Positions 37,019-55,210 of a stretch of 64,000 nt of DNA are shown in pieces. The position numbers and the translations under genes are program-made. Every line of letters begins with the position of its first letter. Position 1 is the stretch's first letter. This DNA comes from a virus (taxonomy: Duplodnaviria > Caudoviricetes): IMG/VR virus record IMGVR_UViG_3300014208_000023, positions 96,001-160,000 of that record; one strand, 5' to 3'. The notes beneath the pieces are model-generated. The model had not been told where the DNA came from. It did no database searches and worked only from the letters and a program-made list of their open reading frames with translations.

Positions 37019-37058
37019 AGGAGCCCTATCTAATAACTGATAGGGCTCCTTTGTTTAT
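37019..37058. terminator. Intrinsic terminator between convergent genes
   Basis: Perfect 12-bp stem AGGAGCCCTATC/GATAGGGCTCCT with 8-nt loop, followed by TTGTTTATTTT. Confidence 0.85.
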
Positions 37059-38164
37059 TTTACTAGCGCTAATACTTTTTTAGCGACCTCAAGCCAATCA
37101 TAGTTTAGCTTAATTGCCGTAGGGCTAAATGATCTGCTATTAACGCTAGCTACCGCTGCCTTTAATTTATTTATTCCATCAGATGGGTCAGGCATAAATG
37201 CTTTTGTTCCAGGCTTACTTTGATAATATAAATAATTTGGAGGAACATTAAACTCTTTGCCTTCAATTAGAAAAGCGTTTGAATGATCTAGAAAATCAGT
37301 AAAGCCGCCGTAGTTAGACGCTACCGGAATTAATCCACAAGCCATTCCTTCTAGCGGAACCATTCCGAATCCCTCGCAATGGCTAGGTGAAAACGTTATA
37401 TCACAAGCTTTATATAGAGAATATATATTTGGTATAAACTCTTTAACAATTTCTACTTCTGCATGATTAGGAAATTTGCTATTAAAGTTTTGAAATACAT
37501 CTTTAAAAGACAACTCAAATTGTTGAGTAGGCGTCCTATCTTGTATCTTTAATACTAAACAAACATCTGATTCTTTAGTGAAAGCTCTGCCGAACATCTC
37601 CAGCGCACCAGTGAAGTTTTTCCTTCTATGAATCTGGCCAAGGTTAATAAGTATCTTAACCGACTTCTTGGTTTTTAGCTGGTATGGAACGGCCGCATCT
37701 ATTTCCTTGTTATTGATGCCGTGCGGAATGACTACGACCTTATCATCAGGGACTCCACTTTCTAGGAATACCTGGCGAGCAAAATTAGATGGCGCCAGTA
37801 TCTTATCGCAGTATTGGTGCGCCTTGGCAAAACCTACTGGCAATGAGTTTTTACCAGCAAACTCATAGCAGTATATTCCAAATCTATTCTTGGCGCTATG
37901 CTGAAGGTATGGATTGAAATTTTTCATAGCGGTATATGATATTGTCATATCATAATTATTGCCTGGGATATTGCCAAACATAACTTTATTATTATCTCCA
38001 TAACATACTAGATTTTTTTCTAGGTCTTGTGGAAAATACTTGTTACCATTAGTAGAAAAAATATCTACTGAATGATTCAGATCTATTAGGCTACGACATA
38101 TGTTTTGAGCAACAATTGCCCAAGAATGATTTTGGGCAGCAAATCCTTGATAGCAAATACGCAT
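37055..38164 (-). CDS. Glycosyltransferase family 4 (GT-B)
   Basis: IPHG, RKN, ACD...SPSHCEGFGMVPLEGMACG. Confidence 0.9.
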   Translation of the reverse strand: MRICYQGFAAQNHSWAIVAQNICRSLIDLNHSVDIFSTNGNKYFPQDLEKNLVCYGDNNKVMFGNIPGNNYDMTISYTAMKNFNPYLQHSAKNRFGIYCYEFAGKNSLPVGFAKAHQYCDKILAPSNFARQVFLESGVPDDKVVVIPHGINNKEIDAAVPYQLKTKKSVKILINLGQIHRRKNFTGALEMFGRAFTKESDVCLVLKIQDRTPTQQFELSFKDVFQNFNSKFPNHAEVEIVKEFIPNIYSLYKACDITFSPSHCEGFGMVPLEGMACGLIPVASNYGGFTDFLDHSNAFLIEGKEFNVPPNYLYYQSKPGTKAFMPDPSDGINKLKAAVASVNSRSFSPTAIKLNYDWLEVAKKVLALVK

Positions 38165-38184: not shown

Positions 38185-41100
38185 TTATAGGCCTAGAAGA
38201 TTTATTGTCTTATTATCATCAATTACTATTGGTGCATTATTCCATCCAGCTTTTTTAAGATAGACGGTAATTTGCACCTTCGTATTTTGAGTTTGCTCAA
38301 CGGCATCTTGATATAGATTGCTGAACTTAAGCGAAAGAAGGCCAGTGTTATAATTTACGCTAACACCAATTCTATTATCAACTATAACTCCAGTATATCC
38401 GTCAGTAGTTATGCCATTCAATTGTGGGGAGAATGATAGAACTCCAACAGACACTCTAATCTGATTATTTGTAAAGCCAGATAGCGATACTAAACTATTA
38501 TCAGCAAATCTCATGGCTTTATAGCCTATTCTTGTATAGCCAGTTCCAGCATAATCCGCAATAAAGTCAGTTAATAGATTAACTACTTTCTCACTACCGA
38601 AAATCTCAACTGCTGGTATCTCGAAAGATACTGTTCCCATTTCAAAATCAACCTTGAAATATCCACCAGTAGGCGTAGTTATCTGGCCTCCAACATTCAT
38701 TACCAAATTACTTGGTATGAACATATCATTGCGACCAGGATCGAATGCTGGTGTTTCTGGGAAAGTTTGAGTAACGTTTAGATTTGTTGTGCTTGGATTT
38801 ACCAAATATCCAGTAGCAGTATTGAATGCTGCTGGAACCATTTTTGGATTAGAATTAACGACTATGTTATGCTCTTTCCAGCTTAACTGCTTAATGATAC
38901 TGAAGTTAATTGGAGTAACCTTAATATTTTGACCGGACCAGCTGGCATAACCATCAATAAATACATCTGGTTTGGCGTGTAGCGTAGTTGATCGATTAGC
39001 ATCTACTCCAGGATAGTCGTCGGCCCTATCAACATATTTTTCAACCGTTAATTTTACAGCAGTAAATGTCGTACCAATCTTATTAGCAGGACTTGTTGTT
39101 GCTGGGAATGGAGGTAACAAATTAATATAGTTAGTTATGTATGTTACATCGGTGCTAGAGACGGTCATATCTCCATCGATATCTGCCCTTAATACTTTTA
39201 AGAATAAATCAGAAGTATATTCGAGTTTAACTATAGTTACGTTTGTATTACTAAGTAAATTAGTTATTCTAAATGAGCTATTGTTATATAAGCTAGTTGT
39301 TGAATTGAGTATATTGACTTTATGTGTGTCTAGGTTTATAACGCTAGAAAAGTTTGCCGATATACTAGAGAAACTAGCGGATGTTCCATTAGCAACAAGA
39401 ACTCCATCAATTCCGCTTTGAACAACTACACTATTGACATCTAGTAATTGCCATGACAAAGCCGAATCAGTTACGAAATCAGTAGTATGAACTAGATATT
39501 CAGATGTAGTTGGAAGGGTATTTAGTTGTGTTCCAAGTAACTCCTGTGACGCTAGAAGATCATCGGTATCAATTATTCCATCACCGTTTATGTCTCCATA
39601 CATAAGCGTATGAAGCTCAGCCTTTACTATTCTGTAGTATATAGATGGCGTAAGCGTGTTAGGTATTATTTTTGCCTGATTTAATTTGCCCGAATCAAGA
39701 TCTGCTAATAGCGTAATTAGATTTTGGTCGTATCTATAACCATCAGAATAGCCATCTATAATTTTAAATACTATTTCATTTCCAACCATTCCATAATGAT
39801 GGAATGCCGCGTTAGAAATTTGACCAGCAATAGAAGATGATTTAATATTCTGATCAGTAATTGTTCCAAGAAGTAATGGTTCAGACACTGCCTTAATGGA
39901 GTCAAGCGCAATAGTGTTTAGTAAAGATAATTCTGGTGTAAATTGTTTTTGAGAATTAATTGGATTGCCAGTTCTCTCATTTTGAATTGGCGCACTTTCA
40001 GTTATTGCGGCCTTCATTACAGCATAGTATAAATCATTTCTCAAGAAAGAGTTATTGCTAAAGCTATAATCAATTGTAGTTCCGGTATTGCTATCAATAG
40101 TTGTTTTTGGTATTTGTATTCCACTACCATTATCATAGGCTTGGCCATCAGAAACTTTTGCAATATCGGAATATGTTCTAAACCATAGAGCCTCTTCAGG
40201 CACATCTACCCATACACTACCATTAAATAGCGTTTCACGAGTATTTGTTTCAGCATTACTTCCTACCGCAACTTGCATTTCACATGTGTCGGCAGATCCG
40301 GCTCGTTTAACGGTTATTACGTAATAATGTCCAGATGTGATTAGTGATCCAGAACCGACTGGCGTATTACTAAAGATAAAATCAACTGGCTGAGGAACGG
40401 TATTTAATTGAATGCCGTTAGCAAGCATTGAGTTATAGTCAAGACTTATCTGCGCCAGTGGAATATTGGTTGGATCAAAATCAATGGCTAAATTAGGAAC
40501 AATATCAGTTGATGACTGAACTGTTGATTGTAATGCATAGATACTAACTATAAGATCTCCGGTCCAAACTAAATTAGATGGAACTGAATTATTTATCGTA
40601 GATAATAGTAAGCTTACTTTTTGAATATTGTTTGATGTAGATAGAAATTTCTGGCCAATCTGCGAGCTGACATCATTTTCAGCTATTCCTCGTAATTGCT
40701 TGTATCCGGTCTTAATGTTTAGAGCATCTATGTTATAGCTTGGTAGGGCCGTAGATAATAAATTAAATAGAGTTCCACCAGTGGCAACGAAAAAATCTCT
40801 GAACACTAGATTAGGCTCAATATCCTGAGAAATCATAATTGGGTCTCTAGAAAGAGACATGGGCATGGCCTCGCGGATAACTATTCTTCCGCCTAAATTA
40901 AATGATTGTAAGGATCCGCCAACAAAGTCATTGAGAAATATTGCTAAAATATTGCGATAGTGTTTTTTTGATATTTGCTTTTCATTTTTGGCAAAAACGA
41001 ATGTATCGTATTGTAGATTATTTTCAAAATCTAGGCCTATTACGATTATCTTAACTGTTTTATTGCCGGCGGCCAACGATCCCGTAAGTTCAATCTCTAA

Positions 41101-41355
41101 TTGATTTCCATTATTGCTATCCGAAGGCTGCGCTTGGGCGACTATAACTTTACCATCTAAAAGGTCACCAGATAGGCTTGTGTCAAATAAAACACCCTGA
41201 ACTAGATTTTCTGGAAGAACACCAGAACCTAAATGATTGCTTATAAAAGCAGAGTGCTGCTGCTCGTTATGGTTTTGCTCGACTGTGAGATTGGTATCAT
41301 CCACACTCTGTGCATCTGACCAAATATTCTGGGGTGTTGAAATGGGTATTCTCAT
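38185..41355 (-). CDS. Large virion structural protein with dockerin-like EF-hand repeats
   Basis: 1056 aa, Ser/Thr/Asn-rich; GDINGDGIIDTDDL and ADIDGDMTVSSTDV; last structural gene of the baseplate operon. Confidence 0.7.
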   Translation of the reverse strand: MRIPISTPQNIWSDAQSVDDTNLTVEQNHNEQQHSAFISNHLGSGVLPENLVQGVLFDTSLSGDLLDGKVIVAQAQPSDSNNGNQLEIELTGSLAAGNKTVKIIVIGLDFENNLQYDTFVFAKNEKQISKKHYRNILAIFLNDFVGGSLQSFNLGGRIVIREAMPMSLSRDPIMISQDIEPNLVFRDFFVATGGTLFNLLSTALPSYNIDALNIKTGYKQLRGIAENDVSSQIGQKFLSTSNNIQKVSLLLSTINNSVPSNLVWTGDLIVSIYALQSTVQSSTDIVPNLAIDFDPTNIPLAQISLDYNSMLANGIQLNTVPQPVDFIFSNTPVGSGSLITSGHYYVITVKRAGSADTCEMQVAVGSNAETNTRETLFNGSVWVDVPEEALWFRTYSDIAKVSDGQAYDNGSGIQIPKTTIDSNTGTTIDYSFSNNSFLRNDLYYAVMKAAITESAPIQNERTGNPINSQKQFTPELSLLNTIALDSIKAVSEPLLLGTITDQNIKSSSIAGQISNAAFHHYGMVGNEIVFKIIDGYSDGYRYDQNLITLLADLDSGKLNQAKIIPNTLTPSIYYRIVKAELHTLMYGDINGDGIIDTDDLLASQELLGTQLNTLPTTSEYLVHTTDFVTDSALSWQLLDVNSVVVQSGIDGVLVANGTSASFSSISANFSSVINLDTHKVNILNSTTSLYNNSSFRITNLLSNTNVTIVKLEYTSDLFLKVLRADIDGDMTVSSTDVTYITNYINLLPPFPATTSPANKIGTTFTAVKLTVEKYVDRADDYPGVDANRSTTLHAKPDVFIDGYASWSGQNIKVTPINFSIIKQLSWKEHNIVVNSNPKMVPAAFNTATGYLVNPSTTNLNVTQTFPETPAFDPGRNDMFIPSNLVMNVGGQITTPTGGYFKVDFEMGTVSFEIPAVEIFGSEKVVNLLTDFIADYAGTGYTRIGYKAMRFADNSLVSLSGFTNNQIRVSVGVLSFSPQLNGITTDGYTGVIVDNRIGVSVNYNTGLLSLKFSNLYQDAVEQTQNTKVQITVYLKKAGWNNAPIVIDDNKTINLLGL

Positions 41356-41360
41356 ATGTC

Positions 41361-44300
41361 CTAGCGGTAGTTAATAAATACTCTGGAGTTTGCTGGCTTG
41401 AGAGTAGAAATTAAGTCTTCCATTACAGTTTTTGCTTTACTATTCTCTCTTAATATACCAAAACTATCAAAGACATTTATAGTAATATCGAATAAACCAG
41501 TCTTCTTATTTTTAATTACGGCAAAATCTGTTGTTATTTCTGATAACTTATTGAAATCTAACAATAAAGTAGTGTATAAATCTTCAGTTGCTGGAAACAC
41601 TACATCTATATTTGTGCTATACCCTGGGTCAATAGGCTCTCCAAAAGGCTTAAATACTGGCCTAGCAACATTACTTATGCGAAGATTATCAATCAATGCC
41701 ATGGCGCCAAGAGTTTGTGTATAATCAGATCCTATTGTAAATTCATTAATGGTATCAGCAAATGACATGGCTGACTGTATAGAGTTATGGCCTACATACG
41801 AAGAACCGAATACCATATTTTCACCAAATAATAGTCCAGATCCAAAAAGAACGTTACCTTGCTCATATCCATCTATAAAGAACCTGATCTCATCAGTTCC
41901 TAGGCCTTGATTTATGATATATTGAGCCCTAAGCTTATGCCATGTATTTTTAGCCCAAAATATAGGAGCGCGAACTTGATGGCTTATTCCAGCACCATCA
42001 ATAGTGAAATTGATGTATCCATAAGGATCTTTATATATAGACATTCTATCGCCAGATAGACCAGTAGGAATATAGATCACTACTATAGATGTTTTTTGAT
42101 TTGGTAACTTCTTATTAAGAAGAAGCGTTTGTGCGTCAGAACTAATGCTTCCACCTGCAAAATAATCCGTATCTTGAGCTCCATTAGCAAGCTTTATGCC
42201 CAATACACTAGATGCTCTTCCAGCTATAGTTACCGTTGCGTTATTTGTGCTTACAATTCGCTCGGTCACGATTCCTGTAGCGTCAAAATAGAATCTATAA
42301 TTGGGATCATTTCCAGTATCATTTAATGGATTTACCCATAACTCTATGGTTCCCTCTGTTTTTGTATTTAAGATGCCAGTATTATCTATAAGTAATGGGC
42401 GATCAGTAAATGATATGCTTTTATTAAAATTACTATTTACACAAGACGCCGACTGTATAAATCCTTTTGTTGCGGTCAGATACACATCCGTATTGTTTGT
42501 TAGCGTAGTCGTATCAAAATCTAATAACATAAGTGTATTTGAATTTGGTTTAATTGCTTTCAAAGAATTGTAGTGTTTGGTTACGCCATCAGCATTAGAG
42601 GCTAGAGTTTCTCCGATTCTTGTGTCAGACAATTTAGTGTCTAAAACAACGAAATCATCTATTATTGCTTTTGACTGATGACTACCATCAAGATCAGATC
42701 CAATAAATCCTCGAAGATTTCCAGTTTCTATTGGTATAGATAGCCCGGTATGATAATCAAGCTCGTAAAGGCCTTGTTTTAATAAATATGGAATACCAGG
42801 AAATAATGACTGTTCAAAAGTAAATTTTCCATTTTGTAATCCGCTACGCGCTTCGCTTACATTAAGTATTTCATAGTTGCCGTCAGTAAATGTTCCTGCC
42901 AAATCACTAGATATAGTGATTGATGTTAGGTCATCTGATACTGCACTTATTAAGTATTGGCCAGCAACTGGAGCTGGAGAATATATTATTAAATAATTTC
43001 CAATATTCTCTTTAGAGAATTGATTAGTTAAGTCTTGGACTGTATTAGCCCCAGATGTTCCTGCCAAAGTATTTCCAACTAGCATCTGATAGCTGTATCT
43101 AATTACTGGAACCAATAAGCTATTCTCTTGCGTAGTTATAGTTTCTTTTTCAGAAATCTTAACAGTGCAACATCCTCTGGCAGTATTGACTGGCTTACAT
43201 GTTACAACTATATAATCAGTTAAAGATACTTTGCCAGCAGTATATTTGGTTCCGTTCTCCGAGAACGTTAAGGTCTCCGTAGCAGCAGCCACGCCATTAA
43301 TTGTTCCAACGATATCTACTGATACGCTGCTTGAATAATCGATATTGTCACCACTTATTGTTACGGAAAGAGTTCTTCCATTATCACTGAGAGATGGTTG
43401 ATCAGTCAATATATTATTTGAGGTAAATACGCCTAAAGATAGGGTTGAGTTGGTTGGGCCAACAACCGTGGTATCTAAAAGAGTATGGTATATTTTCACA
43501 TCTTCCAAGGTTATTGGAGATGGAAGCCTGGTATTTAATATATTTGAAGTATTACCCCAAAGATAGTATTTATTTTTGACTCTACCATGATTAAGGCCTA
43601 GAGTTCTAATTAAGGCGATATCATTTTTTGTAGCGCCGGCCTTAATGGTAAGAACATTACCATAATAACCGTCTCTAGTTATTTCATAAGACGGAAATAG
43701 AGCACGTTGCCCAGGTAGTTCGGTCTCATCGGTAGAATAGATATAAAAAGATGTTCCAGATGTTGTTAGAGGCATAACATCTGATAGTGTAAGCGTATTG
43801 CCAGATACACCAGCGACAATATAATACGATGCGAATCCAACTTGATTTATTTTAATCAAATCCCCAACGACAACGCCTGCCGTTTGAAAGTTATGGCCAA
43901 CAGAAGAAACCACATTACTTAATGCGGTTGTGACCAAATCAATATCCTCTATTGTAGTATGGATTACTGAAACGGCTATATTTTTAAATAAATTAATTTG
44001 CGTAGTAACGGAGAATGAAGTTTTATTTATAGAAAATTTGCAATTAGTTGCAGACACTGGCATTGCAGATGCCAGCGTTAATGTATTGCCATTAACATTA
44101 GTTATTGAGTATCCAGAAGTATTAAAATCAACCTCATCTATATAGATTGTGTCGCCTATATTAATTCCTAGATCAGTAAAATTTAGAGAAGATGTCACGG
44201 TAAAAATACCGGCACTAGTAACCAAATCTGTTGATCCAACTATGCTTTTTAATATTTGGCCTATAATATCTTCAGTTGAAATTGTTCTAAATTTTTGATG

Positions 44301-44546
44301 AAGCAATTCAGATACTTGCCCACCATATTTAATTACATTAGGAACCTCAACTCCATCTATAAATAGGTGCATCTCATCTTGCTTGGTCAATGAGTTTAAG
44401 ACCCAGCTCGTGGCTACGTGATGCTGTTGCCCAGCCTTCCAAGATGATACGTCTGCGCTTACAACATAAATGTTGCCCTTATTATCGGTTATTTTATAGT
44501 TCAAATAGCCGGAAGCGTCTCTAAATAAAGAAAATCTATTTTTCAT
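41361..44546 (-). CDS. LamG/ConA-like virion protein, probable C-terminal half of a split gene
   Basis: Starts mid-domain (KNRFSLFRDASGYLNY...WKAG..HH...DEMHLFIDG) and contains a complete second LamG-type repeat. Confidence 0.75.
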   Translation of the reverse strand: MKNRFSLFRDASGYLNYKITDNKGNIYVVSADVSSWKAGQQHHVATSWVLNSLTKQDEMHLFIDGVEVPNVIKYGGQVSELLHQKFRTISTEDIIGQILKSIVGSTDLVTSAGIFTVTSSLNFTDLGINIGDTIYIDEVDFNTSGYSITNVNGNTLTLASAMPVSATNCKFSINKTSFSVTTQINLFKNIAVSVIHTTIEDIDLVTTALSNVVSSVGHNFQTAGVVVGDLIKINQVGFASYYIVAGVSGNTLTLSDVMPLTTSGTSFYIYSTDETELPGQRALFPSYEITRDGYYGNVLTIKAGATKNDIALIRTLGLNHGRVKNKYYLWGNTSNILNTRLPSPITLEDVKIYHTLLDTTVVGPTNSTLSLGVFTSNNILTDQPSLSDNGRTLSVTISGDNIDYSSSVSVDIVGTINGVAAATETLTFSENGTKYTAGKVSLTDYIVVTCKPVNTARGCCTVKISEKETITTQENSLLVPVIRYSYQMLVGNTLAGTSGANTVQDLTNQFSKENIGNYLIIYSPAPVAGQYLISAVSDDLTSITISSDLAGTFTDGNYEILNVSEARSGLQNGKFTFEQSLFPGIPYLLKQGLYELDYHTGLSIPIETGNLRGFIGSDLDGSHQSKAIIDDFVVLDTKLSDTRIGETLASNADGVTKHYNSLKAIKPNSNTLMLLDFDTTTLTNNTDVYLTATKGFIQSASCVNSNFNKSISFTDRPLLIDNTGILNTKTEGTIELWVNPLNDTGNDPNYRFYFDATGIVTERIVSTNNATVTIAGRASSVLGIKLANGAQDTDYFAGGSISSDAQTLLLNKKLPNQKTSIVVIYIPTGLSGDRMSIYKDPYGYINFTIDGAGISHQVRAPIFWAKNTWHKLRAQYIINQGLGTDEIRFFIDGYEQGNVLFGSGLLFGENMVFGSSYVGHNSIQSAMSFADTINEFTIGSDYTQTLGAMALIDNLRISNVARPVFKPFGEPIDPGYSTNIDVVFPATEDLYTTLLLDFNKLSEITTDFAVIKNKKTGLFDITINVFDSFGILRENSKAKTVMEDLISTLKPANSRVFINYR

Positions 44547-44586
44547 AATTAATTACAATATAATGCGGGTTTATGTCTAATAGTTA

Positions 44587-46959
44587 TTATTGCTGGAGCG
44601 TGTCGAGCGTCATCTCTCACCTCCACTCATCATGCCGGCGCTATGGTGGTAACCGTGCCGCTCGAACCGCGATACTTGAGCGCTCCAGCCTCAACATATA
44701 GCACCCCGCCCGCCGTCGGGTTCGCCGTCGGGACCGTTCCCGCGTTGTCAATGCCGATGACGCCGCCTCCGCCGCCGAGATCTGCCGCGCCCGCTCCAAT
44801 CTGGAGCCCGTCAGGCGTTACCTGAAATGCGCTCGTCCCGTTGAGCGAGAAAACGTGCTTAGTGAAGGCGTCGTAATTGAGCTGATATGCCTGGATTGCA
44901 CCGAACAGAGAGAGCGAAGTGCCGAACGTCCACGACGATCCGCCACCGTCTGTTGTAAGCAGGGCGCGATCTGTGCCGTCGAAGTTACATACTAGCTGTG
45001 ATCGAGTCACAGCCCCCGTGCCGATGCGGATTGCGCCGGCCGCGGCCACCGTGTCGATACCGAAATCGCCGTGCGCCGTGAGGCCGCCGAGCGGAGAGAA
45101 GCTCTCGAATGCCGCCGCGGCGAAGGATACGGCCCCTGCCGCGACTGTTGCGTCACACACCGAGTCGAGCGTGAACTCCGTGGTGCCGGAGCCGCCCGGT
45201 TGCGCGATGATCTTCTTGGTGCCGGTGACGCCAGCAATAGCGATGTACTGCCCGACGACCATATCCGAATAATCACTTACGGTGATGCTCGCACTACCAC
45301 TCGTCGCCGCGCCCACCGTCGCCCCCCCGTTGAGCGTCCCCATTGTGCCAGACGTGAGGCACCGCTGACCGAGCTCTCCGCCAGAGACGGGTTGAGCTTG
45401 CCACACAACGTCGCCACGTTCGTACGTGAGATCAGCGCCGCTGTACTTCGTCGTTTTCGGTGACGTCTCAGACGTGAAGATGATCGCCGCGTTTGAACTG
45501 TCCGAGCGGCCAAGCATGATACCATTTTCGGCCCAAGGCACCGGCTGCCGCGGGCACGCTTGACTTGTGAGAAACGTCAGTACCCGATCGTAAATGCCGT
45601 TGTTCTGTAGAACGAACGATTTGGTAGTCTCATGATAGTTAAGTGAGTGCCTGTTCTGGACGTTGCTACCTGCGTCGTCGTACGACGCAAACGAGAACGT
45701 CGCCATGTCGGTACCTAGAGCCCCGATAGCGCCCTCAACCTTGCGCGTGCCTCGATCGGCTATGTACCGGAGTGGAGCGTTCGAGGCCGCGCCGTGCGAA
45801 AGTAGGAAAGCTGTCGAGTCTGTCGTGAGCATCCCCGCATTGAAGGTGCCGCCGATGATCGTAGCCTGACCGAGCATATGGTTCAGCGGACCTTCCTCAC
45901 AGTAGCAGCCAATGAAGTTGGATCGGTTGGAGTCCTGCGCCGTGCGGTAGTTGCTGATTGCGTTCCCCTGCGCCGTGCACGCTACATACGTGTTGCCAAA
46001 CGACTCATCATAGAATCCGTAGCCGGTGTTGAACGAAGAGTTGATGCCGATGAGAGCGCTCGCGTTCGAGTCGCCGCCGTACATGCGACAGCCATCGCCC
46101 TTGCATTGCCCGATGTTGATGTTCGAGAACACCGACGAGTCAATGTTTCCGGCGGCCGATGTGTCACCGACTAGGCCGTGCCCGCCAAAGCCTTGAATGT
46201 CTACGCTCTCCACGGTGCACTGCACGTGCACCGAAAGCCCGTTGCCCGAGACTGTGCCTGCTGCCATGCAGAATAGGGTCATATTCCGCAACACGGAGTG
46301 GTCCGCGCGTGGGTCGAACGCCGGATCGTGCCAGAGATGCACGCCGTCAACGTCGGCGGGGAACACGAGCATCGTTCCCGGCGACGTGCGGTACGACACG
46401 AGCTCCGGATTCGACTTGCCCGATCCCTCTAAGACGATAGTTTGCCTGACGTCGAGCGGGCCGGAAAGGTAGAAGTGCCCGTTCGCAACGAGCTTCGTGA
46501 CCCGGTTGCTATCGGCTTTCATCGCCGCGAGCGCAGCATTGAAAGCTGCGAGGTTGTCCGTCCCCGTCGTGCCGTTCCAGTCAGCTACCGCACCGTAGTC
46601 CTCGACGTCGTAGTGGCCCGGCATTACGGCCTTGCCTGCACGCAGCTTGGATCCGCGCTTCTTCCAGACCTCTCCGGTGGCAAGCGAGTCGTTAGTCTCG
46701 ACGCGCACGCCCTTGATGCCAACCACGCGGTCAATGTTGATGCCAGTGCTCGATGCTATGTCATCTGCGACTGTCGCTCCTCCGCCGGCCCCACGAACAC
46801 CATCAAGCACAGTTTGTACCGTTTTTTTTGACATATCTAATATCCCATTCTAAATACATAACGAATCACTATTGTCTAATAATAAATTATTATCATCTGC
46901 TAATAATAGTAATCTTGCTAATTCCAAAACATCCGCTTGAGTTAAGGCATTATTTATAT
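44587..46959 (-). mobile_element. Foreign insert (high-GC tailspike cassette) between the two LamG half-genes
   Basis: Abrupt GC rise (sampled lines about 60% vs about 30-40% in flanks); gene stubs at both ends; no transposase or terminal repeat seen. Confidence 0.6.
44630..46834 (-). CDS. Tailspike/tail-fibre with pectate-lyase-like beta-helix (putative depolymerase)
   Basis: VEDYGAVAD...[12 protein letters not shown], parallel beta-helix-type repeats, C-terminal [21 protein letters not shown]. Confidence 0.8.
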
Positions 46960-49900
46960 TTATTGCCTCTGACTCCCAAAATCAAATAAATAATGCTCAT
47001 AATCTGCCGTTAAAGTAATGCCTTCATGAGTCGAAGCCGCATCTACTATGCTATAAGTTATTTTATTATTTCCACTTCTTAATTTACCATTTGAGGTTAT
47101 TGAGTCAGATGTTTTTTTGATATCATAAAATGAACCATTTGTAGTTATTTTGATGATATGTGACGACGCTACGTATCCATCTCTATAGCCATCAGAATAT
47201 CCATCATAGCCATCAGAATATCCATCCGTATATCCATCAACAACATCAACAATATCAACGCACCATCTATTAAATATTCTGGTGCTATCTGGAACTATAT
47301 AGATATATATTCCATCCTTATTTTTATTTGGCAACCCTAACAAATCGTTATTCAAATTATTTATTGTAAATACACCATTAATAGATTTTGGATGATTCTC
47401 ACCTGGTCCAATAAAAACTTCACGATCATGAATTGATCGACCTGCTTTTGTAATTTCAAAAGATAAATCTGCCTGATTATCTATCCCATTCCACTGTGGA
47501 ACAACCCACATTTCCATTGTTCCCTCTTCAATTTTAAGGTTGGAAATTACTGGAAAACTAACCGTCTGATCTGGATTAGATACTAGAATGCCATTGCCAT
47601 GTTTTGCTGGAAGTATTTCGAGCTCACCAGTTGTCTTTACTTTTTGTCTAGAAAGAAGGCTGCTTCCAAGTGACCAATTTGTGAATGCGGCCTCTATTAT
47701 TTCTGGCGGAACATGAGTAATGCTCTGGACTATGTTTCGCAAAGAGCTTACCGTTGGGCCCTGAGTAAATGACTGCATTGCCGCAACAAGAGCATCGCGA
47801 TACCTCTCACGCGAGAAGTCTATATTTAGATTATTTAAAATAGGGATATCGATAAGTGTTCCGAAATTTTTAAGCAAGGCATCACGCAATGCTCCGGCCT
47901 TATAGGTTACGTAATATTTATTTCCGGGCTCTACCGTTGTAGATTTAGAGAAATCTAATATATTGTCTCCATGCTCATAGCTTAAAATTATCTCATCGGC
48001 AAGATAGCTGTAATCTATTAGATAGTCTCCTCGACTATAATCGACGACTATTCTTGATAAATCAGCTATCGTAAATGAGTATGTAACCAATACTGCATCG
48101 CCCGTAACTGGAGTATTTACGCCAGATAGGGTTAGCGTTAAAGGAGAGCCGGCAACAACAATACCTGAACCATCCCAAAGTTGAGCACTATCAGATAGTC
48201 TAGTAACACTAACAGTTACGCTTATATTTGGAGAAATATATGGAAGATTAGTATTAGTAACAATAATATGATTTAGACCAGAAAGCTGAACTGATTGATA
48301 CTCGCGATATTGTTTGGTAGAGACACTTATTGTTTTTCCATTTACAGTGGCAGATGTAGCAAAATTAATTGGACTAACATTATTTAAAAGGTCTTCCCTT
48401 TCGAATAATCCTCTTACATATTTGACATAGTCAGTTACACCAGGTATGAAGGTTGCCGATTCAAATACTCCAATATTTCCATTATATATTTGATATGGAA
48501 GAGTTGCGACACCACCTAAGAAGTTTTCAGCAGTAGTATCAAATACTGATGGAAGAATAAGAGAATCAGTGAATGAAGTATATTCAAATGATCTTACCTT
48601 ATCAGCCAAAGAGTTTAGCTTATAATACATATCAGATATTGTTATGATATGTGGATGCTGCGTTTTAACGTATCCTCTTTTATAAAATACGGTTCCTATT
48701 GATAGATCCTGGTCTGTAGCAACCACAACCCAAATCACGCCATTTTTATAATCTACTTGATATTCTCCAATTTGAGTTAGTTTGGAATTATTTTGACTTT
48801 CAGTAAGTCCGATATCATAATAAAACTCGGAAGAGAACGTGACAGTATCAGAAAATGTTATGCTTTTATTTTGAGAGTGAGCTATACCATCTTCAGACGC
48901 AGCAATAATGTTATTGTTGAGAAGGAATATTTTAAATAGTTTTTTAGTTACAGAAAGAGTAGTGGTTGTGCTAACGAAAAGAGTTTCATTTGGAACATCA
49001 TCAAATGACACACGCTCTCTAGTTAAATCAGTAATTTTTGGGGGTGTTTGGTATGTAAAAAATACTTTGCTTTGATTCCATCGCGATACATTATAAACTT
49101 CGCCGCTAGTTTCATTAAAAATTCTAAATACATTAGTTATTGGAAAGTTTAATGGCCTAATTACATTTAGCGCCTCTAGTCTATTTTCAATTCTTTCCGA
49201 TAACTCTTCCTTATGGACTTCTGCAAAATAATCTACATCTTTAACTAGAACTTTATCAAAACTATATGTAATAGCGGCTGGCGATCCGGTTAAGTTACCT
49301 AAAGGTAGAGCTACGATATCTGACGCGGAATCATCATATACATAGTCTATTTCTGATTGAAAGGGATATCGATAATAATATATTGCAAGTGGAGGGTAGG
49401 CGCCCGTTCCAGATCTATTATTGTCTTCACCAAACACATATACTGTTCCAGTAGAGTAATCTACCGAATATTCTCCAACTCGTGATGGTAACGATTCTAG
49501 TCTAAAAGGTATTTCATAAACAAACGCTGGGTGAGCAGTATTGCTTCCGGGAAAAGCATTTGGGTCAGAGAAGGATATATTACCAACTTTTCCATTTATA
49601 TTATTGGCGCTTACGATCGGAGCGTGCTTTAGATTAAATACATTTTCTATTGCTGGCAGCACTTCTCTTCCAGAAGGAAGAACGGCATTAGCTATAATAG
49701 TTGCTGGATCGATTACCTTGCCCTGATCTTTATACTGATAATCTATAGTTATAGATGCTATATTCTCTAAAGAGAATGATGTATTTGATAATACCTTATC
49801 GCTTAATCTAAATTGGTTTTCTCCTAGCGAAACATATGTAAATGCATAGCTAGGATCATATTTAGAATTTTGGACTTGGTATCCATAAATAGTTTTATCA

Positions 49901-50706
49901 TATGAAAACGCAGGTAATATTGAATTATAAATTATCGTAACGCTATTAAGTATAGTTACTGGAAACTTTTTTGCATTTATGGTAAGCGTTTTTAAATTGA
50001 AACTTCCTATAGAATCGGAATTACTTAAAGTAAGTGTTTCGACCATATTGGCACTTAACAATGACCGTGGAAAATCTGGAAATTCACTTTCATTAATGGT
50101 TTCCGTTAAGGGAGCATTCGTTGGAGTTAGGGCAACGCGACTTATCTCATATGCTCCCTCTTGATTTAACCTGTCGTGCGCACTTGTTCCTCTGGTTTTT
50201 AATTCATCAGTTACCGTGAATGATAAGTAATTATCGTTTTTTGTTTGGCCTATACTATATAGTGCTTTTGATAATGATAATGATAGTCCGTCAATATATG
50301 TTGATAAAATCGATGGTGACTCTAAATCATATACATTCTTTGATAAAAAACCTAATAAAGCGTCTTTAATGGGGTTGCTTGCTTCAAGTGGCCCTACGAA
50401 ATAATGTTTATTCGTAGCACCATCATTTAAAATTACGGCATCACCATTTAGTGATTTAAAAATAACCGTATCAGTACTTTTAAAGTTTATTACATATGTT
50501 GCTTGAGATACTATTGGTTGTGTAATAATGTTTAAAACATTATCGACAATATCTATTTCAAGAATAGTTGGTGCAAGAACGCCATTAGTTTCAGAAGTAA
50601 TTGAAACATTATCAATCCCTATTAATGGGCTCAACGATGAGCTGAACTTTGCAGATAAATGAGTGCTATCAGTTACTGTAAATGATAATAATCTTAAATT
50701 TGCCAT
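46960..50706 (-). CDS. Large baseplate/virion protein, probable N-terminal half of a split gene
   Basis: 1248 aa, follows baseplate J; ends partway into a LamG-type repeat (EEGTMEMWVVP...YLFDFG). Confidence 0.75.
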   Translation of the reverse strand: MANLRLLSFTVTDSTHLSAKFSSSLSPLIGIDNVSITSETNGVLAPTILEIDIVDNVLNIITQPIVSQATYVINFKSTDTVIFKSLNGDAVILNDGATNKHYFVGPLEASNPIKDALLGFLSKNVYDLESPSILSTYIDGLSLSLSKALYSIGQTKNDNYLSFTVTDELKTRGTSAHDRLNQEGAYEISRVALTPTNAPLTETINESEFPDFPRSLLSANMVETLTLSNSDSIGSFNLKTLTINAKKFPVTILNSVTIIYNSILPAFSYDKTIYGYQVQNSKYDPSYAFTYVSLGENQFRLSDKVLSNTSFSLENIASITIDYQYKDQGKVIDPATIIANAVLPSGREVLPAIENVFNLKHAPIVSANNINGKVGNISFSDPNAFPGSNTAHPAFVYEIPFRLESLPSRVGEYSVDYSTGTVYVFGEDNNRSGTGAYPPLAIYYYRYPFQSEIDYVYDDSASDIVALPLGNLTGSPAAITYSFDKVLVKDVDYFAEVHKEELSERIENRLEALNVIRPLNFPITNVFRIFNETSGEVYNVSRWNQSKVFFTYQTPPKITDLTRERVSFDDVPNETLFVSTTTTLSVTKKLFKIFLLNNNIIAASEDGIAHSQNKSITFSDTVTFSSEFYYDIGLTESQNNSKLTQIGEYQVDYKNGVIWVVVATDQDLSIGTVFYKRGYVKTQHPHIITISDMYYKLNSLADKVRSFEYTSFTDSLILPSVFDTTAENFLGGVATLPYQIYNGNIGVFESATFIPGVTDYVKYVRGLFEREDLLNNVSPINFATSATVNGKTISVSTKQYREYQSVQLSGLNHIIVTNTNLPYISPNISVTVSVTRLSDSAQLWDGSGIVVAGSPLTLTLSGVNTPVTGDAVLVTYSFTIADLSRIVVDYSRGDYLIDYSYLADEIILSYEHGDNILDFSKSTTVEPGNKYYVTYKAGALRDALLKNFGTLIDIPILNNLNIDFSRERYRDALVAAMQSFTQGPTVSSLRNIVQSITHVPPEIIEAAFTNWSLGSSLLSRQKVKTTGELEILPAKHGNGILVSNPDQTVSFPVISNLKIEEGTMEMWVVPQWNGIDNQADLSFEITKAGRSIHDREVFIGPGENHPKSINGVFTINNLNNDLLGLPNKNKDGIYIYIVPDSTRIFNRWCVDIVDVVDGYTDGYSDGYDGYSDGYRDGYVASSHIIKITTNGSFYDIKKTSDSITSNGKLRSGNNKITYSIVDAASTHEGITLTADYEHYLFDFGSQRQ
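47185..47226. repeat. Exact 21-bp tandem duplication within a (DGY[S/T])n tract
   Basis: ATAGCCATCAGAATATCCATC x2; protein reads DGYTDGYSDGYDGYSDGYRDGY. Confidence 0.9.
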
Positions 50707-50707
50707 A

Positions 50708-53700
50708 TTAACGAGATTCCTGATTTACAATAATATCATTTGCAGAAAAGAACTGATCCGCTTCAGCAACAAGAGATAGCTTCTGCCCAACTACTCCATT
50801 TTTATTGAAATAAATAATACGAGCCCGATCAACACCATCAACTCCTTGTGCTGCCACTGCTAGGTCAGAAGCATTTATTACATCTCCCAATGTTCCAGTA
50901 TTGATTGCGCTTGTTATTCTATCTTTTGTATTTTGTTTAACTATTGCAGCAGAGCTATTGAATTCTGTTTTGATAACTATATTTAGCGTAGCATTAACTA
51001 GAACCTCTTTAGCCTCTCTAACCAGTACATCGGCATTTATTGGTCTAGAAGACTCTATTGCAAATGTGGTATCAGCAATGACTTGGTTAAAATTGCTTCT
51101 AATCAAAATTCTCTCATTTTGCTTTGGCGCAAGATAATCATAAAATGCTCTATATCTTGATCCGGTTGTTGGTTGAGTAAAAAATGAAATTGTAAATCTA
51201 GCAGATTGAGAAGAATTAAATCCGCTGGATACATATAGTTTATTCAATAAAGCAAATTTCTTATTAGTATATAGCGTACCATTTCTTGTAAAATATATAT
51301 TTTCAGAATCACCATCAGTAGCATACACAAAACTAACTCTTAACTTATCTCCTATTATTGGGGCCGAAGCAACGTTTGCGACCGTAGATGGTAAAATAAA
51401 ATCCATTTTTGATAACGAAGAGTTTATATTCATAATGTTTGAATATAGTAGGTCATTATAAATTTCAGTTCCAGCTACGTCATATGTAATGGCTGATGAT
51501 AATACTTGATCGTCAGTAGTAGTTAATACTTTTTCTACCTTTAAAACTCTAACTACAGATTTATCAGAACCTATTACTGATGTAGATGCTGCTCCCAAAA
51601 ATGTTTTCATCGCCTCTAGCAGGTTTTGCTTTAATCCATTTTGGGTGGCGGTAAATATAATGTTAGAAACTTTTGTAGTTGTTGTACCGGTGGCAGTAAG
51701 AATGCCGCTATTAGTAAGCTGATCGGTTAGAGTTATAGCTAGTCTAGTTGGAGATTGTCTTAATGTTTTATTTCCAAATACAATAACGAGAACATTATCT
51801 CCGGCTATAGCATTGGTTGAGCTAACCAAATTGAGCGTATTTGATGACATACTAGATGTGCTAGGCATCCATAAGTCTTTATTGTCTAGTAATCTAATTA
51901 CGCTTATTTGATTGTTGGATACATAGCTGGTTAGCGGACTTATAATAATGCTGTTAGAATTAACATATTGAATAATATTAAATGTGCCATTATTGTTTAT
52001 GTTGGCAGCATTAGATATTATTATCTGCTTTGATTTTATCTGTGATATTGTGGAAAAGTTTATACTGATACTATCAAAGGTAATGCTTTCAGAACTAACG
52101 CTAGAGATATAACCATCTGTGGCTGATGAAATAACCAATCCAGTAGTAGGATCTATTATTTCAAACTTTAGCCCAGTTGCGCTTGTAAAATTATTTAGTG
52201 GGCAGTATAGGTTGTTTGTAGAAAAATTATAGCTTAATGGATGTAAGTTATATTTTATAACTTCATTTGAAAATGTAAATGGTTGTCCGCGAGAAATATC
52301 AGTTGCCTTATAAACGACAATAACCTGATCTCCAACGGCTGGACCATTGAGCCCAGAGAAGGTTAAAACGTAGTTACTGCTTCCATCGACACTGACGGTT
52401 CCGTAACCATCACTATTCCAGTATTCTTTACCAGAAACTATATTCATTACGGTAATGACATTAGCGGCGGTTAGAGAATACTGCGTCGATAATAGACTTA
52501 ATGTTACATAAAAATTATTAGATACATCCTTTTGAACAGTTTGGTTCTGCCTGCTTATACAATTTGAGATTACGGTATTTTTACTTCCAGTATTTGTTCC
52601 TAAAACAAATCCATTACCGTCTCTGCTAATTGGTAGGTTAGTTACACTGAATGCCAATAAATCTTGCGATGATGAAACATAAGTCACAAGAAGATTTATT
52701 TGAGATGGAGTTCCAGTAATATTTCCTGATGGAACAGTCATATCACCAGAGATAAAACTTCCATTGGAATTTGTCACATTAAATACATCAATAGAGTTAT
52801 ATATTATAATAACATTATCACCTATGATCGCTTCTGTATCAGTAGGAAGAATAATACTTACATTATATTTTATATCAATACCAACTGCGACTCTATTATT
52901 TAGAAATAGCCCATCAGAAGATGCTGTTGAATATAATTCTTTTTCAGTATTAGTTAATTTAATACCGGATACACTATCTATTTGAGCATCTATTGCCGAT
53001 AGGCTTATAGCAAGACGATCAGAGAAATTTATTACTGTGCTGGCTTCCACCGTGCCAACAATTACATTGTAGGTGTTAGCAGATATTACCGAAGATATTG
53101 GTAGAGATGAGCTTCCAGTATAAAATGTGTTATCAGCATTTAGTCTAAATAGAACTTTTTCTGTTCTAACGGAATTAGATAGCCCCCAGTCAATGCTATC
53201 TACACTGCTTCTGGGATTGTTGGTAAGTAGCTTACCATCATAATCGCTAAACGCATCATAATCAATAATCCAAGTATAATCTACCTGAAGTATATCGCTT
53301 GCTGATGGTAGAGTATTTCCGCTAATCTGTATTCTTCCAGAATTATTGAATGGCGTTCCGTTGTCAAGATTCTGATTGGTTACCGTATAACGCTCTCCAG
53401 TATTTGAATTAAGAACCCTGCTAACGTTACTACAAGGAGTATGTAGTAATTGAACTATTGACCTGTCAGAGTTTAATACTGTGCTATTTTCATTATTGAC
53501 TGGAACATTTTGCTGTATGGTTGGTATTTCAATTACATCGGTGAATGTAGCCGCGTCCTGACCATTAAATTGAGCTTTGATAATATCTTCTTGAAAATCA
53601 GATACCCTATCACTTACCCAGACAAATGTATCTCTAGCCCAATTGCTTCCGGCATAAGCACCAGTATCTTTTACAAGATCATAGTTACCAGTAACACGAC

Positions 53701-54778
53701 CCAATGAATCTACTGATTTTGGAATAAAATTTCCACCGCTTAACGATCCGGTTACTTCTAAAAGATCTTTTATTGGTTGAGAAGGCACAATGCCAGCAGC
53801 AATATTGTCTATTCTCTTACGAGTTATAGTTTTGTTTTCGTCACCAGTAATTTGACCTAAAACAACATCATTAGCAGTATTTGTAGGATCATTACTATTA
53901 CTTTTATCTCTATAAATAAAGGTATCAATATTTTCATTAGTATTGCTTCCAAGGACAACAACATCTACTTTGCCGCCAGTTCCTTCAGACACTATGCTTT
54001 TGGTTTCGTCTTCAGCAGTTTTTACTATTGTTCCGTCACGCGTCATGAGAACATCGCCAGGACTAATAACTAAAGCATCCTGCACTGCCGAATTAGTTAG
54101 CGCTGTATTTTTATATCCAAGAGCTGTTCCTATATTGGATCCGCTAAATATAGCCAACACTCTGTTTCTATATGACGTATCATCTTCTTGATTTGCTCCG
54201 CCTTGAAAAGCGAATACATTAGTTACATTAGATACTCCTGGGATTGAAGTTCTAACTAGACTGTATTTTGATATATTTCCCTGCGCTCCTGGAACACTGG
54301 CCCTAACCGATACCTCTACCGCAAATGGGTCTGTAATATTTAAAAAGTTTAGGTCATTTTGATATTTAGTAGCTATTGAGCGATAGTAATTGCTTTTAGA
54401 TGAATCAACGCTGAATCCATTTGTAACAACAAAGTTAGATCCATTTTGAGCGGAAATAGAATCGCCCGAATTAACTGCTACATTGGCCGGAAGAGAACTA
54501 AATGTCAATAAGGCTATACCAGTAGATGATGATGCAGTTTTTTTGGTGGCTCCAAGATTCTGCCCTAATTTCTCTAAATCAGATCCCGAAACTAATCGTA
54601 ATGATTGAAGATTTGAAATTGCCGCAACTTCATCATGAAGAAGGGCTATTTGACTGCCTGGAGCATCTATGAATAGATCTCGGGCAACAGTACCATCTTT
54701 GGTATCCAAATCAGGCTGAGAAGCCTTATAGTATTCTATAAGCTCTAGTACGATTTCATTAAGAGATTTAATAGCCAT
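50708..54778 (-). CDS. Baseplate J/gp47-like wedge protein (extended)
   Basis: D.KDGTVARDL, V.V.A..PG..GN, GG.NQEDD..YR.R, PG..M.RD, G.VD. Confidence 0.85.
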   Translation of the reverse strand: MAIKSLNEIVLELIEYYKASQPDLDTKDGTVARDLFIDAPGSQIALLHDEVAAISNLQSLRLVSGSDLEKLGQNLGATKKTASSSTGIALLTFSSLPANVAVNSGDSISAQNGSNFVVTNGFSVDSSKSNYYRSIATKYQNDLNFLNITDPFAVEVSVRASVPGAQGNISKYSLVRTSIPGVSNVTNVFAFQGGANQEDDTSYRNRVLAIFSGSNIGTALGYKNTALTNSAVQDALVISPGDVLMTRDGTIVKTAEDETKSIVSEGTGGKVDVVVLGSNTNENIDTFIYRDKSNSNDPTNTANDVVLGQITGDENKTITRKRIDNIAAGIVPSQPIKDLLEVTGSLSGGNFIPKSVDSLGRVTGNYDLVKDTGAYAGSNWARDTFVWVSDRVSDFQEDIIKAQFNGQDAATFTDVIEIPTIQQNVPVNNENSTVLNSDRSIVQLLHTPCSNVSRVLNSNTGERYTVTNQNLDNGTPFNNSGRIQISGNTLPSASDILQVDYTWIIDYDAFSDYDGKLLTNNPRSSVDSIDWGLSNSVRTEKVLFRLNADNTFYTGSSSLPISSVISANTYNVIVGTVEASTVINFSDRLAISLSAIDAQIDSVSGIKLTNTEKELYSTASSDGLFLNNRVAVGIDIKYNVSIILPTDTEAIIGDNVIIIYNSIDVFNVTNSNGSFISGDMTVPSGNITGTPSQINLLVTYVSSSQDLLAFSVTNLPISRDGNGFVLGTNTGSKNTVISNCISRQNQTVQKDVSNNFYVTLSLLSTQYSLTAANVITVMNIVSGKEYWNSDGYGTVSVDGSSNYVLTFSGLNGPAVGDQVIVVYKATDISRGQPFTFSNEVIKYNLHPLSYNFSTNNLYCPLNNFTSATGLKFEIIDPTTGLVISSATDGYISSVSSESITFDSISINFSTISQIKSKQIIISNAANINNNGTFNIIQYVNSNSIIISPLTSYVSNNQISVIRLLDNKDLWMPSTSSMSSNTLNLVSSTNAIAGDNVLVIVFGNKTLRQSPTRLAITLTDQLTNSGILTATGTTTTKVSNIIFTATQNGLKQNLLEAMKTFLGAASTSVIGSDKSVVRVLKVEKVLTTTDDQVLSSAITYDVAGTEIYNDLLYSNIMNINSSLSKMDFILPSTVANVASAPIIGDKLRVSFVYATDGDSENIYFTRNGTLYTNKKFALLNKLYVSSGFNSSQSARFTISFFTQPTTGSRYRAFYDYLAPKQNERILIRSNFNQVIADTTFAIESSRPINADVLVREAKEVLVNATLNIVIKTEFNSSAAIVKQNTKDRITSAINTGTLGDVINASDLAVAAQGVDGVDRARIIYFNKNGVVGQKLSLVAEADQFFSANDIIVNQESR

Positions 54779-54784
54779 TGGTCC

Positions 54785-55210
54785 TTATTGTGGATTAAAA
54801 GAAACATTTACGGTTCCAAAAGCTTTTGTCAAGACTTTTATGAAAACTTTTAATACTCTCATGTCCTGGTCACTTCTTTGTATGGAGATCCCTTGAATAT
54901 ATGAAATTTGTTCATCTGCCGTCATTTTTTGACCCGTAGATGCTTGTAACGTTTGTAGCTCTTTTAATATATCTATTGCATTTTGTAATTGTGATTGGGC
55001 TACATTATCGGTTATTTCTCTTGGTAAAGGGCTTCCTATTAGGCTTGATGATACCATAGACCCATACCAGGAATGCAGTGGGTTAGCGCCAAGCTCTGTG
55101 GTGGCAATCTTAACAAGATCCTGTGCTAACTTGTCTTTTCCACGTAAAGTGGCCAAGTTACCGTTCTCGATCTTAAGATCTCCAGCCACGATTTTTAGGT
55201 CAAATGACAT
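54785..55210 (-). CDS. Baseplate wedge gp25/GPW-like protein
   Basis: GDL...G.....L.G..KL.QD......T.LG.NP.H.WYG; directly before baseplate J. Confidence 0.78.
   Translation of the reverse strand: MSFDLKIVAGDLKIENGNLATLRGKDKLAQDLVKIATTELGANPLHSWYGSMVSSSLIGSPLPREITDNVAQSQLQNAIDILKELQTLQASTGQKMTADEQISYIQGISIQRSDQDMRVLKVFIKVLTKAFGTVNVSFNPQ

Follow-up and report, generated by a model that had tools for sequence, protein, structure and literature searches.

Gene order and domain anatomy of the divided locus

The window analyzed here is a stretch of 64,000 nucleotides (nt), bases 96001 to 160000 of a 428,320-bp virus record in IMG/VR (IMGVR_UViG_3300014208_000023) that has direct terminal repeats and comes from groundwater metagenomes. 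Its minus strand carries a LamG-type gene that is a single open reading frame (ORF) in more distant relatives and that is here divided, inside a domain, between two ORFs, the N-half (protein P0002) and the C-half (P0003), with a gene for a different protein (P0001, the cargo) between them. The minus-strand order is a Baseplate_J gene, P0002, P0001, P0003, a 1056-amino-acid (aa) ORF, and then a GT4 glycosyltransferase gene. The Baseplate_J gene lies directly upstream of the N-half, its stop one base ahead of the N-half ATG. The features of the locus are as follows:

50708..54778, minus strand: Baseplate J-like (T4 gp6-type wedge) gene, 1356 aa (Pfam Baseplate_J, 63.8 bits; PHROG 6 baseplate wedge subunit, E 1.3e-31)
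46960..50706, minus strand: N-half P0002, 1248 aa, C terminus ...ADYEHYLFDFG-SQRQ-stop, colinear with the first half of the relatives' single ORFs
46975..47589, minus strand: LamG domain 1 segment 1, P0002 ~1040-1244 (EGTMEMWVVP...HYLFDFG, with a DGY-rich loop insertion), placed by alignment, model interface residues, and the Pfam match across the junction in fused relatives
46850..46974, minus strand: frameshifted remnant of the N-half C-terminal tail, frame ESEAININNALTQADVLELARLLLLADDNNLLLDNSDSLCI then a stop, homologous to the translated tail of sister phage L025 (EPDPEETNVALTQDEV...)
44630..46834, minus strand: cargo gene P0001, 734 aa, predicted right-handed beta-helix protein, tailspike/depolymerase-like by composition, Foldseek, and homologs
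44593..46790, minus strand: horizontally acquired high-GC DNA, approximate extent ~2.2 kb (GC profile, per-codon GC at the 5' end, CAATAA resuming at the 3' end)
44587..44624, minus strand: donor stub, a GGAGG Shine-Dalgarno (SD) site at 44620-44624, then the opening codons of the gene that came next in the donor (ATG 44613; MTLDTLQQ-stop)
44547..44592, minus strand: native AT-rich spacer upstream of the C-half start, opening with CAATAA, with no SD and no terminator
41361..44546, minus strand: C-half P0003, 1061 aa, N terminus M-K-NRFSLFRDASGYLNY, with stand-alone orthologs of 1060-1063 aa and the same start in six other lineages
44322..44546, minus strand: LamG domain 1 segment 2, P0003 1-75 (Pfam Laminin_G_3 profile 44-105; model strand pairing with P0002)
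42612..42749, minus strand: LamG domain 1 closing strands, P0003 ~600-645 (FIGSD...IIDDFVVLD...DTRIGE), a block conserved in all relatives, with residues 606-639 touching P0002 in the model
41547..42404, minus strand: second LamG domain, complete, P0003 ~715-1000 (Pfam Laminin_G_3, 29.8 bits at 813-918; internal repeat match)

The two ORFs part at ...HYLFDFG | (K)NRFSLF..., a beta-hairpin loop within the first of the two LamG domains (Laminin_G_3, PF13385). Against the Pfam gathering cutoff of 27.6 bits, P0003 residues 3-71 scored 34.1 bits, and both LamG domains of P0003 (3-71 and 813-918) were above the threshold. The match at 3-71 covered only positions 44-105 of the 151-position profile, so the P0003 ORF begins in mid-domain. 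P0003 3-72 also matched the complete internal repeat at P0003 833-900 (BLASTP E 5e-10), and the P0002 C-terminal strand EGTMEMWVVP matched EGTIELWVNP. In fused relatives the Laminin_G_3 match spanned the junction; in a fragment of L002, residues 170-283, with the junction at approximately residue 205, matched profile positions 15-110 at 30.1 bits, and fused L006, L011, and L013 were below the cutoff. Because the block at P0003 ~600-645 resembles closing strands, domain 1 was counted as three segments, with a nested insertion of ~530 aa between the second and the third. An initial annotation, made from the letters of the window and their translations, had described two ORFs with a LamG repeat cut in mid-domain and an ATG directly ahead of KNRF. 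Both descriptions were correct, as were the minus-strand coordinates that it gave, with the 734-aa ORF 44630..46834 lying between the two. It had also described the second repeat as being in two halves; the division across the ORFs stands, and the domain has three segments, not two.

Fused relatives and the ancestral gene

Searches of IMG/VR and JGI metagenome contigs recovered relatives at 21 loci, 17 of them distinct, with two of the ORFs clipped by contig ends. In each of the 17 distinct relatives (31-51% aa identity), the matches to the end of P0002 and the start of P0003 were adjacent and in frame within one stop-free ORF of 2180-2500 aa, and the junction followed the pattern ...HY(L/I)FDFG-x(4-6)-NR(F/L/M)S(L/I)(F/Y)KD.... 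The window proteins were colinear with the fused relatives over ~2280 residues, at up to 51% identity. A gene on an ENA scaffold (L031:5-6470) was also fused, with the junction FDFGKSENQNRFS, no stop, and 65-75% aa identity, bringing the distinct relatives in which contiguous homologs of both halves were found to 18. These results support an ancestral form consisting of one gene of ~2200-2500 aa located directly after the Baseplate_J gene, in agreement with the earlier proposal of an ancestral ~2300-aa single protein now encoded as two chains. Tblastn searches with P0001, P0002, and P0003 against 50,697 GenBank phage records gave no match, and a search for the P0002 locus among viral contigs gave none that was confirmed.

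A conserved split with variable content in the gap

A protein search restricted by length (~1061 aa) recovered stand-alone C-half orthologs of 1060-1063 aa at 78, 76, 70, 69, and 61% identity, several of them on contigs of 424-431 kb. The two-gene form is shared by six other lineages at 61-78% aa identity, plus one near-identical variant (X3), and the C-half start position is kept in seven lineages. Every split form is cut at the same loop. The DNA between the halves ranges from 59 nt (X3) to 6 kb and differs in content as listed below, with the P0034 and P0035 contigs judged from gene maps:

L025 (NCBI assembly): N-half of 1288 aa; gap with 200-aa and 603-aa genes, the 603-aa protein with TIG domains
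L027-L029 (24 or more contigs): N-half of 1279 aa; gap with genes of 259, 666, and 933 aa
P0035 contig: N-half of 1302 aa; gap with one 527-aa gene
L030: N-half with a short tail; gap with a 91-nt AT-rich spacer only
P0034 contig: split form; upstream N-half ORF not identified

X3 is a 481-nt contig from an unrelated 2024 freshwater run in which window position 44546 was joined to 46909 with one extra base and the 2362 nt of cargo were missing. It still had two frames, which met in an ATGA where the stop of the first (TGA) overlaps the start of the second (ATG). Sequencing runs X4-X8 held small shares only, and the X4 contigs stopped short of the junction. These comparisons indicate that the split is older than the insert of the window and is common to a clade of phages of ~424-431 kb.

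All N-halves except that of the window run ~20-50 residues past FDFG, and this tail was conserved and in frame in L025, L027, and X3. In the window, a 1-nt deletion next to 46975 leads to SQRQ and a stop, followed by a remnant that is open over 41 codons and homologous to the L025 tail. That the remnant is still open suggests that the frameshift is very recent, and the loss of the tail may accompany replacement of the native cargo. An exact search of viral contigs with a 31-nt piece of the tail remnant returned none.

The cargo proteins of the sister phages also have parts in common. Homologous C-terminal blocks were found in the 200-aa protein of L025 (L025:7497-8099), the 666-aa protein of L027 (L027:4882-6882), and P0022. 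The block is near-identical (...VRQ.F.LS.LYYGAAGP.AT...TGIA.T.L...Y..S(I/V)(I/L)) and its carriers differ in length; because cargo proteins of unlike length have it in common, module shuffling among the cargo genes is indicated. As a separate observation on the right flank of the gap, a motif, GTATTACTATA(C/T), lies ~55 nt upstream of the C-half ATG in L025 (9944) and L027 (9951). It is repeated in another L025 intergenic region (20522), is degenerate in the window (44570-44592), and could be a promoter.

Predicted reassembly of the two chains

Residues 1020-1248 of P0002 and 1-660 of P0003 were modeled as a complex with ESMFold2, each with an alignment of fused relatives (A2, A3). The interface score (ipSAE) was 0.68 (median of three runs; range, 0.66 to 0.74); the highest score among three controls was 0.00. 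In the calibration of this score, 58 of 80 solved complexes reached the mark, as did 2 of 110 mismatched pairs, counts that are approximate here since custom alignments were used. The complex runs shared at least 91% of their contacts, and the predicted local distance difference test (pLDDT) score of the partner was at least 73. The contacts in the model paired LamG strands: P0003 7-8 contacted P0002 ~1238-1240 (the HYLF strand), P0003 38-48 contacted P0002 ~1062-1073 (the EGTMEMWVVPQW strand), and P0003 606-639 contacted P0002 ~1032-1055. Most likely, therefore, as far as these models can tell, the two chains co-fold into one beta-sandwich. The earlier suggestion that they reassemble in this manner thus gains a predicted structure.

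Selection, expression signals, and protein identity

Comparison of the window with L025 or L027 gave nonsynonymous divergence (dN) of 0.16-0.22 and saturated synonymous divergence (dS) for each half and for the three LamG segments taken separately. In the comparison of the window with X3, 17 substitutions were listed over the final ~100 N-half codons, and only three amino acids changed, all conservatively. Because dN is low while dS is saturated, both halves are kept by purifying selection.

The C-half would be translated separately from ATG 44546, which lacks an SD. An SD core preceded just 31% of the native long ORFs, so a start of this kind is normal here. No terminator was found in a scan of 44300-47200, and promoter-like sites in that scan were no commoner than in shuffled sequences. 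None of the sequencing runs listed as containing this DNA was of RNA. Pfam searches with P0002 (in pieces) and P0003 60-620 found nothing, nor did a PDB sequence search with P0002 and profile A3; an ESM Atlas feature search with P0002 1-520 gave no usable match, and PHROGs searched with P0001, P0002, and P0003 gave no family. With respect to membership of the T4 gp7 or P2 gpI wedge types, P0002 and P0003 had no PHROG, PDB, or non-LamG Pfam match. From the position directly after the Baseplate_J gene, we infer a baseplate role for P0002 and P0003, which would place them in the virion.

A high-GC cargo gene and its probable origin

The DNA between the halves had been described, correctly, as unrelated, and positions 44600-46800 had a guanine-plus-cytosine (GC) content of 58-66%, compared to ~35% in the flanks. 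P0001 had GC values of 0.58/0.52/0.72 at the first, second, and third codon positions, versus ~0.43/0.39/0.24 in neighboring genes. Codons 1 to ~15 of P0001 were AT-rich, with the first four or five like a native cargo start, and the remainder was foreign. The cargo starts read MSKKTVQT in P0001, MSKRITELN in L025, and MSKKITDLP in L027. At the other end, where the foreign DNA stops on its 3' side, there is a CAATAA that also occurs in the right flank of the cargo in L025 and L027. Because the native tail remnant, the first codons, and the CAATAA flank survive around it, the GC-rich DNA appears to have replaced an earlier cargo. After the P0001 stop comes a GGAGG site and then ATG-ACG-CTC-GAC-ACG-CTC-CAG-CAA-TAA. 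Such a GGAGG precedes only 1 of 302 native long ORFs, and the short frame is, judging from its sequence, the start of the donor's next gene. The best homolog of P0001, P0007, was 64% identical over residues 74-577 and lay on a phage-like contig with rIIB; P0001 homologs were found in phage contexts, and P0001 16-93 was 65% identical to the N terminus of P0023, on a contig of 66.6% GC. The best reading of these data is that the insert was recently acquired from a high-GC phage lineage.

P0001 is, by prediction, a beta-helix tailspike-like protein. Its AlphaFold2 model had pLDDT values of 75-93 over residues 71-420, and its top Foldseek matches were the tailspikes 7chu, phiAB6, Dettilon, and CBA120 (E 6e-9 to 1e-4), with TM-scores that were low (0.2-0.36) because the termini were poorly modeled. 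P0001 scored 19.8 bits against Pfam PF12708, under the cutoff of 27, and its homologs P0007, P0008, and P0009 carried PF27114 or PF12708. P0001 residues 604-731 resembled part of a native 914-aa protein of the same phage and the C terminus of a solved hyaluronidase. P0001 may attach to the virion and take part in adsorption. Domain matches to P0001 and the cargo of L025 and L027 were pectate-lyase-like, TIG, and tail protein. For P0001 and five L025/L027 cargo proteins, no HNH, GIY-YIG, LAGLIDADG, or PD-(D/E)XK match was found, and there were no meaningful terminal direct or inverted repeats around the insert. A blastn search of the rest of the genome with the insert found no DNA copy, and tblastx gave one match of 31 aa.

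Two side observations concern these subjects. The native 914-aa ORF (G000:C1:310505-313249; L004:355-3099) has a 130-aa block with 40% identity to the C-terminal part of P0001, and the block motif GGG.GVIGID...VPT.NPT.G.VLY.E.GALK also matches the C terminus of PDB 4ufq (hyaluronidase). The genome averages 39.7% GC and, outside the window, contains a 22.5-kb region at 50-58% GC (G000:C1:44751-67250). Elsewhere it has several islands of 1-3 kb at 50-55% GC. The 2.2-kb insert studied here is the most extreme, reaching 64-70%.

History of the locus

A maximum-likelihood tree was built for the C-half; its outgroup rows L007, L008, and L011 had been truncated at the second LamG repeat (229-232 aa), with the ingroup unaffected. 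Seven close sequences formed a clade (100/100) with fused L006 as sister. Within the clade, P0035 (split) branched first, then L030 with P0034 (both split), then L031, and then the window with L025 and L027. L031, which is fused, thus nests inside the split clade (support 100/99 and 92/90), and the history is not one of a simple single split. Constraining the split forms to be monophyletic cost 31 log-likelihood units (approximately unbiased [AU] test, p = 0.017), for a group that was named after the tree had been seen. A split with a later re-fusion or gene conversion requires a minimum of two state changes, versus at least three for independent splits. The most economical history would therefore be a single old split, with a later re-fusion or gene conversion in L031. 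X3 is close to the window on the side of the C-half, with ~1% divergence (5/452 nt), and more distant on the side of the N-half, with 7-9% (29/393, 8/87). This contrast indicates a recombination breakpoint at the split locus.

Taking the evidence together, we regard it as likely that this gene in pieces is old and conserved, that receptor-binding genes are exchanged in the slot formed by its break, and that in this genome the slot recently received a high-GC replacement. In the proposed sequence of events, an ancestral ~2300-aa baseplate-module gene with two LamG domains would have become two separately translated genes in a megaphage clade. Strands of the N-half (~1040-1244) would pair with C-half residues 1-75 and ~600-645 to form one beta-sandwich, and the gap would act as an exchange slot for tail-fibre/tailspike genes, with content unlike in every sister lineage. 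In the window, an earlier cargo would recently have been replaced by ~2.2 kb of high-GC DNA holding a tailspike-like gene and the start of the donor's next gene, while the native flanks persisted as the frameshifted N-half tail, the first native cargo codons, and the spacer before the C-half.

Several points weigh against parts of this account. The position of L031 complicates the idea of one split. The N-half tail is conserved in the sister phages yet frameshifted here, which could mean early decay. The C-half, putatively translated on its own, has a start with neither an SD nor translational coupling in this genome. The modeled complex joins pieces of one very common fold, and its score may reflect likeness to solved LamG structures rather than true binding; the baseplate assignment has synteny as its only basis. 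The N-terminal domain of P0001 is foreign (donor-type), and the protein may not dock on this virion. Finally, the two sequencing runs that yielded full-length contigs in Logan may be the source samples of the window, which would make them separate assemblies and not independent biology.

The main alternative to an old split with re-fusion is recurrent targeted insertion, in which a mobile cassette repeatedly and site-specifically entered the LamG loop, supplied tail, cargo, and right flank alike, and produced several independent splits. The placement of fused L031 among split forms, the rejection of split-form monophyly (for the post hoc group described above), and the cutting of the same loop in every split form all speak for such a cassette; so do the loop KSENQ of L031, which is identical to that of the distant fused L011, and the X3 divergence contrast, which points to recombination at the site. 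We nevertheless consider it unlikely, as searches of the cargo found no integrase, transposase, or homing endonuclease, no terminal repeats flank the insert, the history requires the larger number of changes, and the N-half tails are divergent, as fits old vertical descent. A related idea, equally doubtful at present, is that the LamG break is a dedicated, selectable socket at which cassettes are gained, swapped, lost, or even excised with re-fusion of the gene. The N-half tail or the sandwich itself would then dock the cargo fibre, and host-range cassettes would be inherited and exchanged as a unit with their attachment point. If true, this would be an integron-like host-range locus nested within a protein domain. 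Decay of the locus has much less to recommend it: the absence of an SD or coupling before ATG 44546 and the frameshifted tail would fit a pseudogene pair, or a C-half that is not made, in a dispensable remnant. However, no stop interrupts the 1248 and 1061 codons of the halves, which align in the same order with relatives along ~2280 residues; dN is far below dS, the C-half start position is kept in seven lineages, and we judge such decay very improbable. It is slightly harder still to credit that the 2.4-kb GC-rich insertion itself split an intact gene in this genome, as the initial annotation implied. The insert does occupy just the space between the halves, and the gene is uninterrupted in more distant relatives, but the split is already present in sister phages at 61-78% identity, whose gaps hold other cargo or none, and the foreign DNA is surrounded by the native tail remnant, a native MSKK (compare MSKKIT in L027 and MSKRIT in L025), and CAATAA. 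That part of the earlier proposal is not supported. The annotation had taken the presence of two separate genes in relatives lacking the insert as grounds for rejecting its proposal, and literally this is the case for L030 and X3. Because both are inside a clade that was already split, they refute the insert as the maker of the split and not the conversion of one ancestral gene into two.

The least plausible explanations concern the assembly and the transcript. A jump from ~35% to 62% GC in a genome assembled from metagenomes could mean that a GC-rich piece of another organism had been joined in error. However, positions 44000-47500 were matched without any difference by Logan contigs of 135,240 nt, assembled from a 2018 and a 2022 run of different studies, the 5' junction falls within the open 734-aa frame, and the foreign DNA fills exactly the cargo slot of the sisters. 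The misassembly check thus came out in favor of the locus as given, with identical junctions in two separate assemblies, and a chimera is extremely improbable. The chance that the halves are rejoined at the level of RNA or translation, by a group I or II intron, trans-splicing, ribosomal bypass, or an intein, is similarly negligible. Intron- or homing endonuclease gene (HEG)-interrupted essential genes are frequent in jumbo phages (PMC12880540), but no Rfam match at E <= 1 was found in 40000-52000 of the window or in L025, L027, and L030. In addition, the gap varies from 59 nt to 6 kb, opens with a tail conserved at the protein level, and holds whole ORFs, each with a start of its own. An intein is excluded by stops in all frames, and no Pfam intein domain was found; the spacers of X3 (59 nt) and L030 (~145 nt) are too short for a ribozyme, that of L030 being also too AT-rich. 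The initial annotation had likewise thought rejoining of the RNA less likely.

Comparison with known systems

To our knowledge, phage genes in pieces have been enzymes cut by selfish endonuclease genes. Here, the cut domain belongs to a predicted virion structural protein and is kept under selection across a clade of phages of >400 kb, and the space that was opened holds a different fibre/spike set in each lineage, one of them apparently freshly imported from a lineage of ~66% GC. Known cases in T4-like phages include nrdA of Aeh1, interrupted by mobE, gp39/gp60 of T4, interrupted by mobA, and gene 43, which is split in phages 25 and 44RR; in these, a free-standing homing endonuclease gene has divided a gene whose counterparts in relatives are uninterrupted, and the pieces come together again as proteins (PMC2988022). 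The present locus resembles them in that the gene is contiguous in relatives, is cut in a functionally important region, and consists of two ORFs with foreign DNA between them, and in that two polypeptides must reassemble, which is here predicted from the model. As with gene 43 in 44RR versus phage 25, some of the related split genomes have a gene in the gap and others do not. It differs in involving a putative structural baseplate-module protein, not an enzyme, and in having tail-fibre/tailspike cargo that varies from lineage to lineage and in which no endonuclease was found. Compared to the interrupted genes of jumbo phages mentioned above, there is again a huge genome with a fragmented, essential-looking gene, but there is no ribozyme signal, and the gap codes for virion-type proteins and a translated tail.

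Receptor-binding protein (tail fibre/tailspike) modules are known to be exchanged between phages by recombination in host-recognition modules (PMC10579305). The locus is like these in its mosaic fibre/spike genes between conserved tail genes, in modules common to unrelated proteins, and in the compositionally foreign allele of the window. It is unlike them in that the slot is inside a domain of a conserved structural protein and not between whole genes. With regard to the Laminin_G_3, concanavalin A-like lectin/glucanase domains (PF13385) of phage tail and baseplate proteins, there are two such domains here, and, as a point of difference, domain 1 is drawn from three segments on two polypeptides with the ~530-aa nested insertion. 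In the literature searched, no paper was found on a fibre/tailspike slot inside a split baseplate domain, which is not proof of novelty. If the chains do rebuild one baseplate beta-sandwich, the locus would be a natural example of a split structural domain and would offer a predictable place to seek host-range determinants in uncultivated megaphages. It shows a route by which adsorption genes may be swapped while the surrounding baseplate operon is spared. It also carries a warning for annotation, as two neighboring giant "hypothetical" ORFs may be one functional protein.

Neighboring genes

Just upstream of the Baseplate_J gene is a 239-aa ORF (55200-55919, minus strand) with weak HNH matches (PHROG 2340, E 1.9e-5; Pfam HNH_4, below the cutoff). 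Downstream of the split gene are a gene for a 1056-aa protein with a dockerin-like repeat (38185-41355, minus strand), the GT4 glycosyltransferase gene (37055-38164, minus strand), and a GH5 cellulase-family gene (34543-36954, plus strand). The order GH5/GT4/1056-aa protein after the split gene is also kept in the sister phages L025 and L027.

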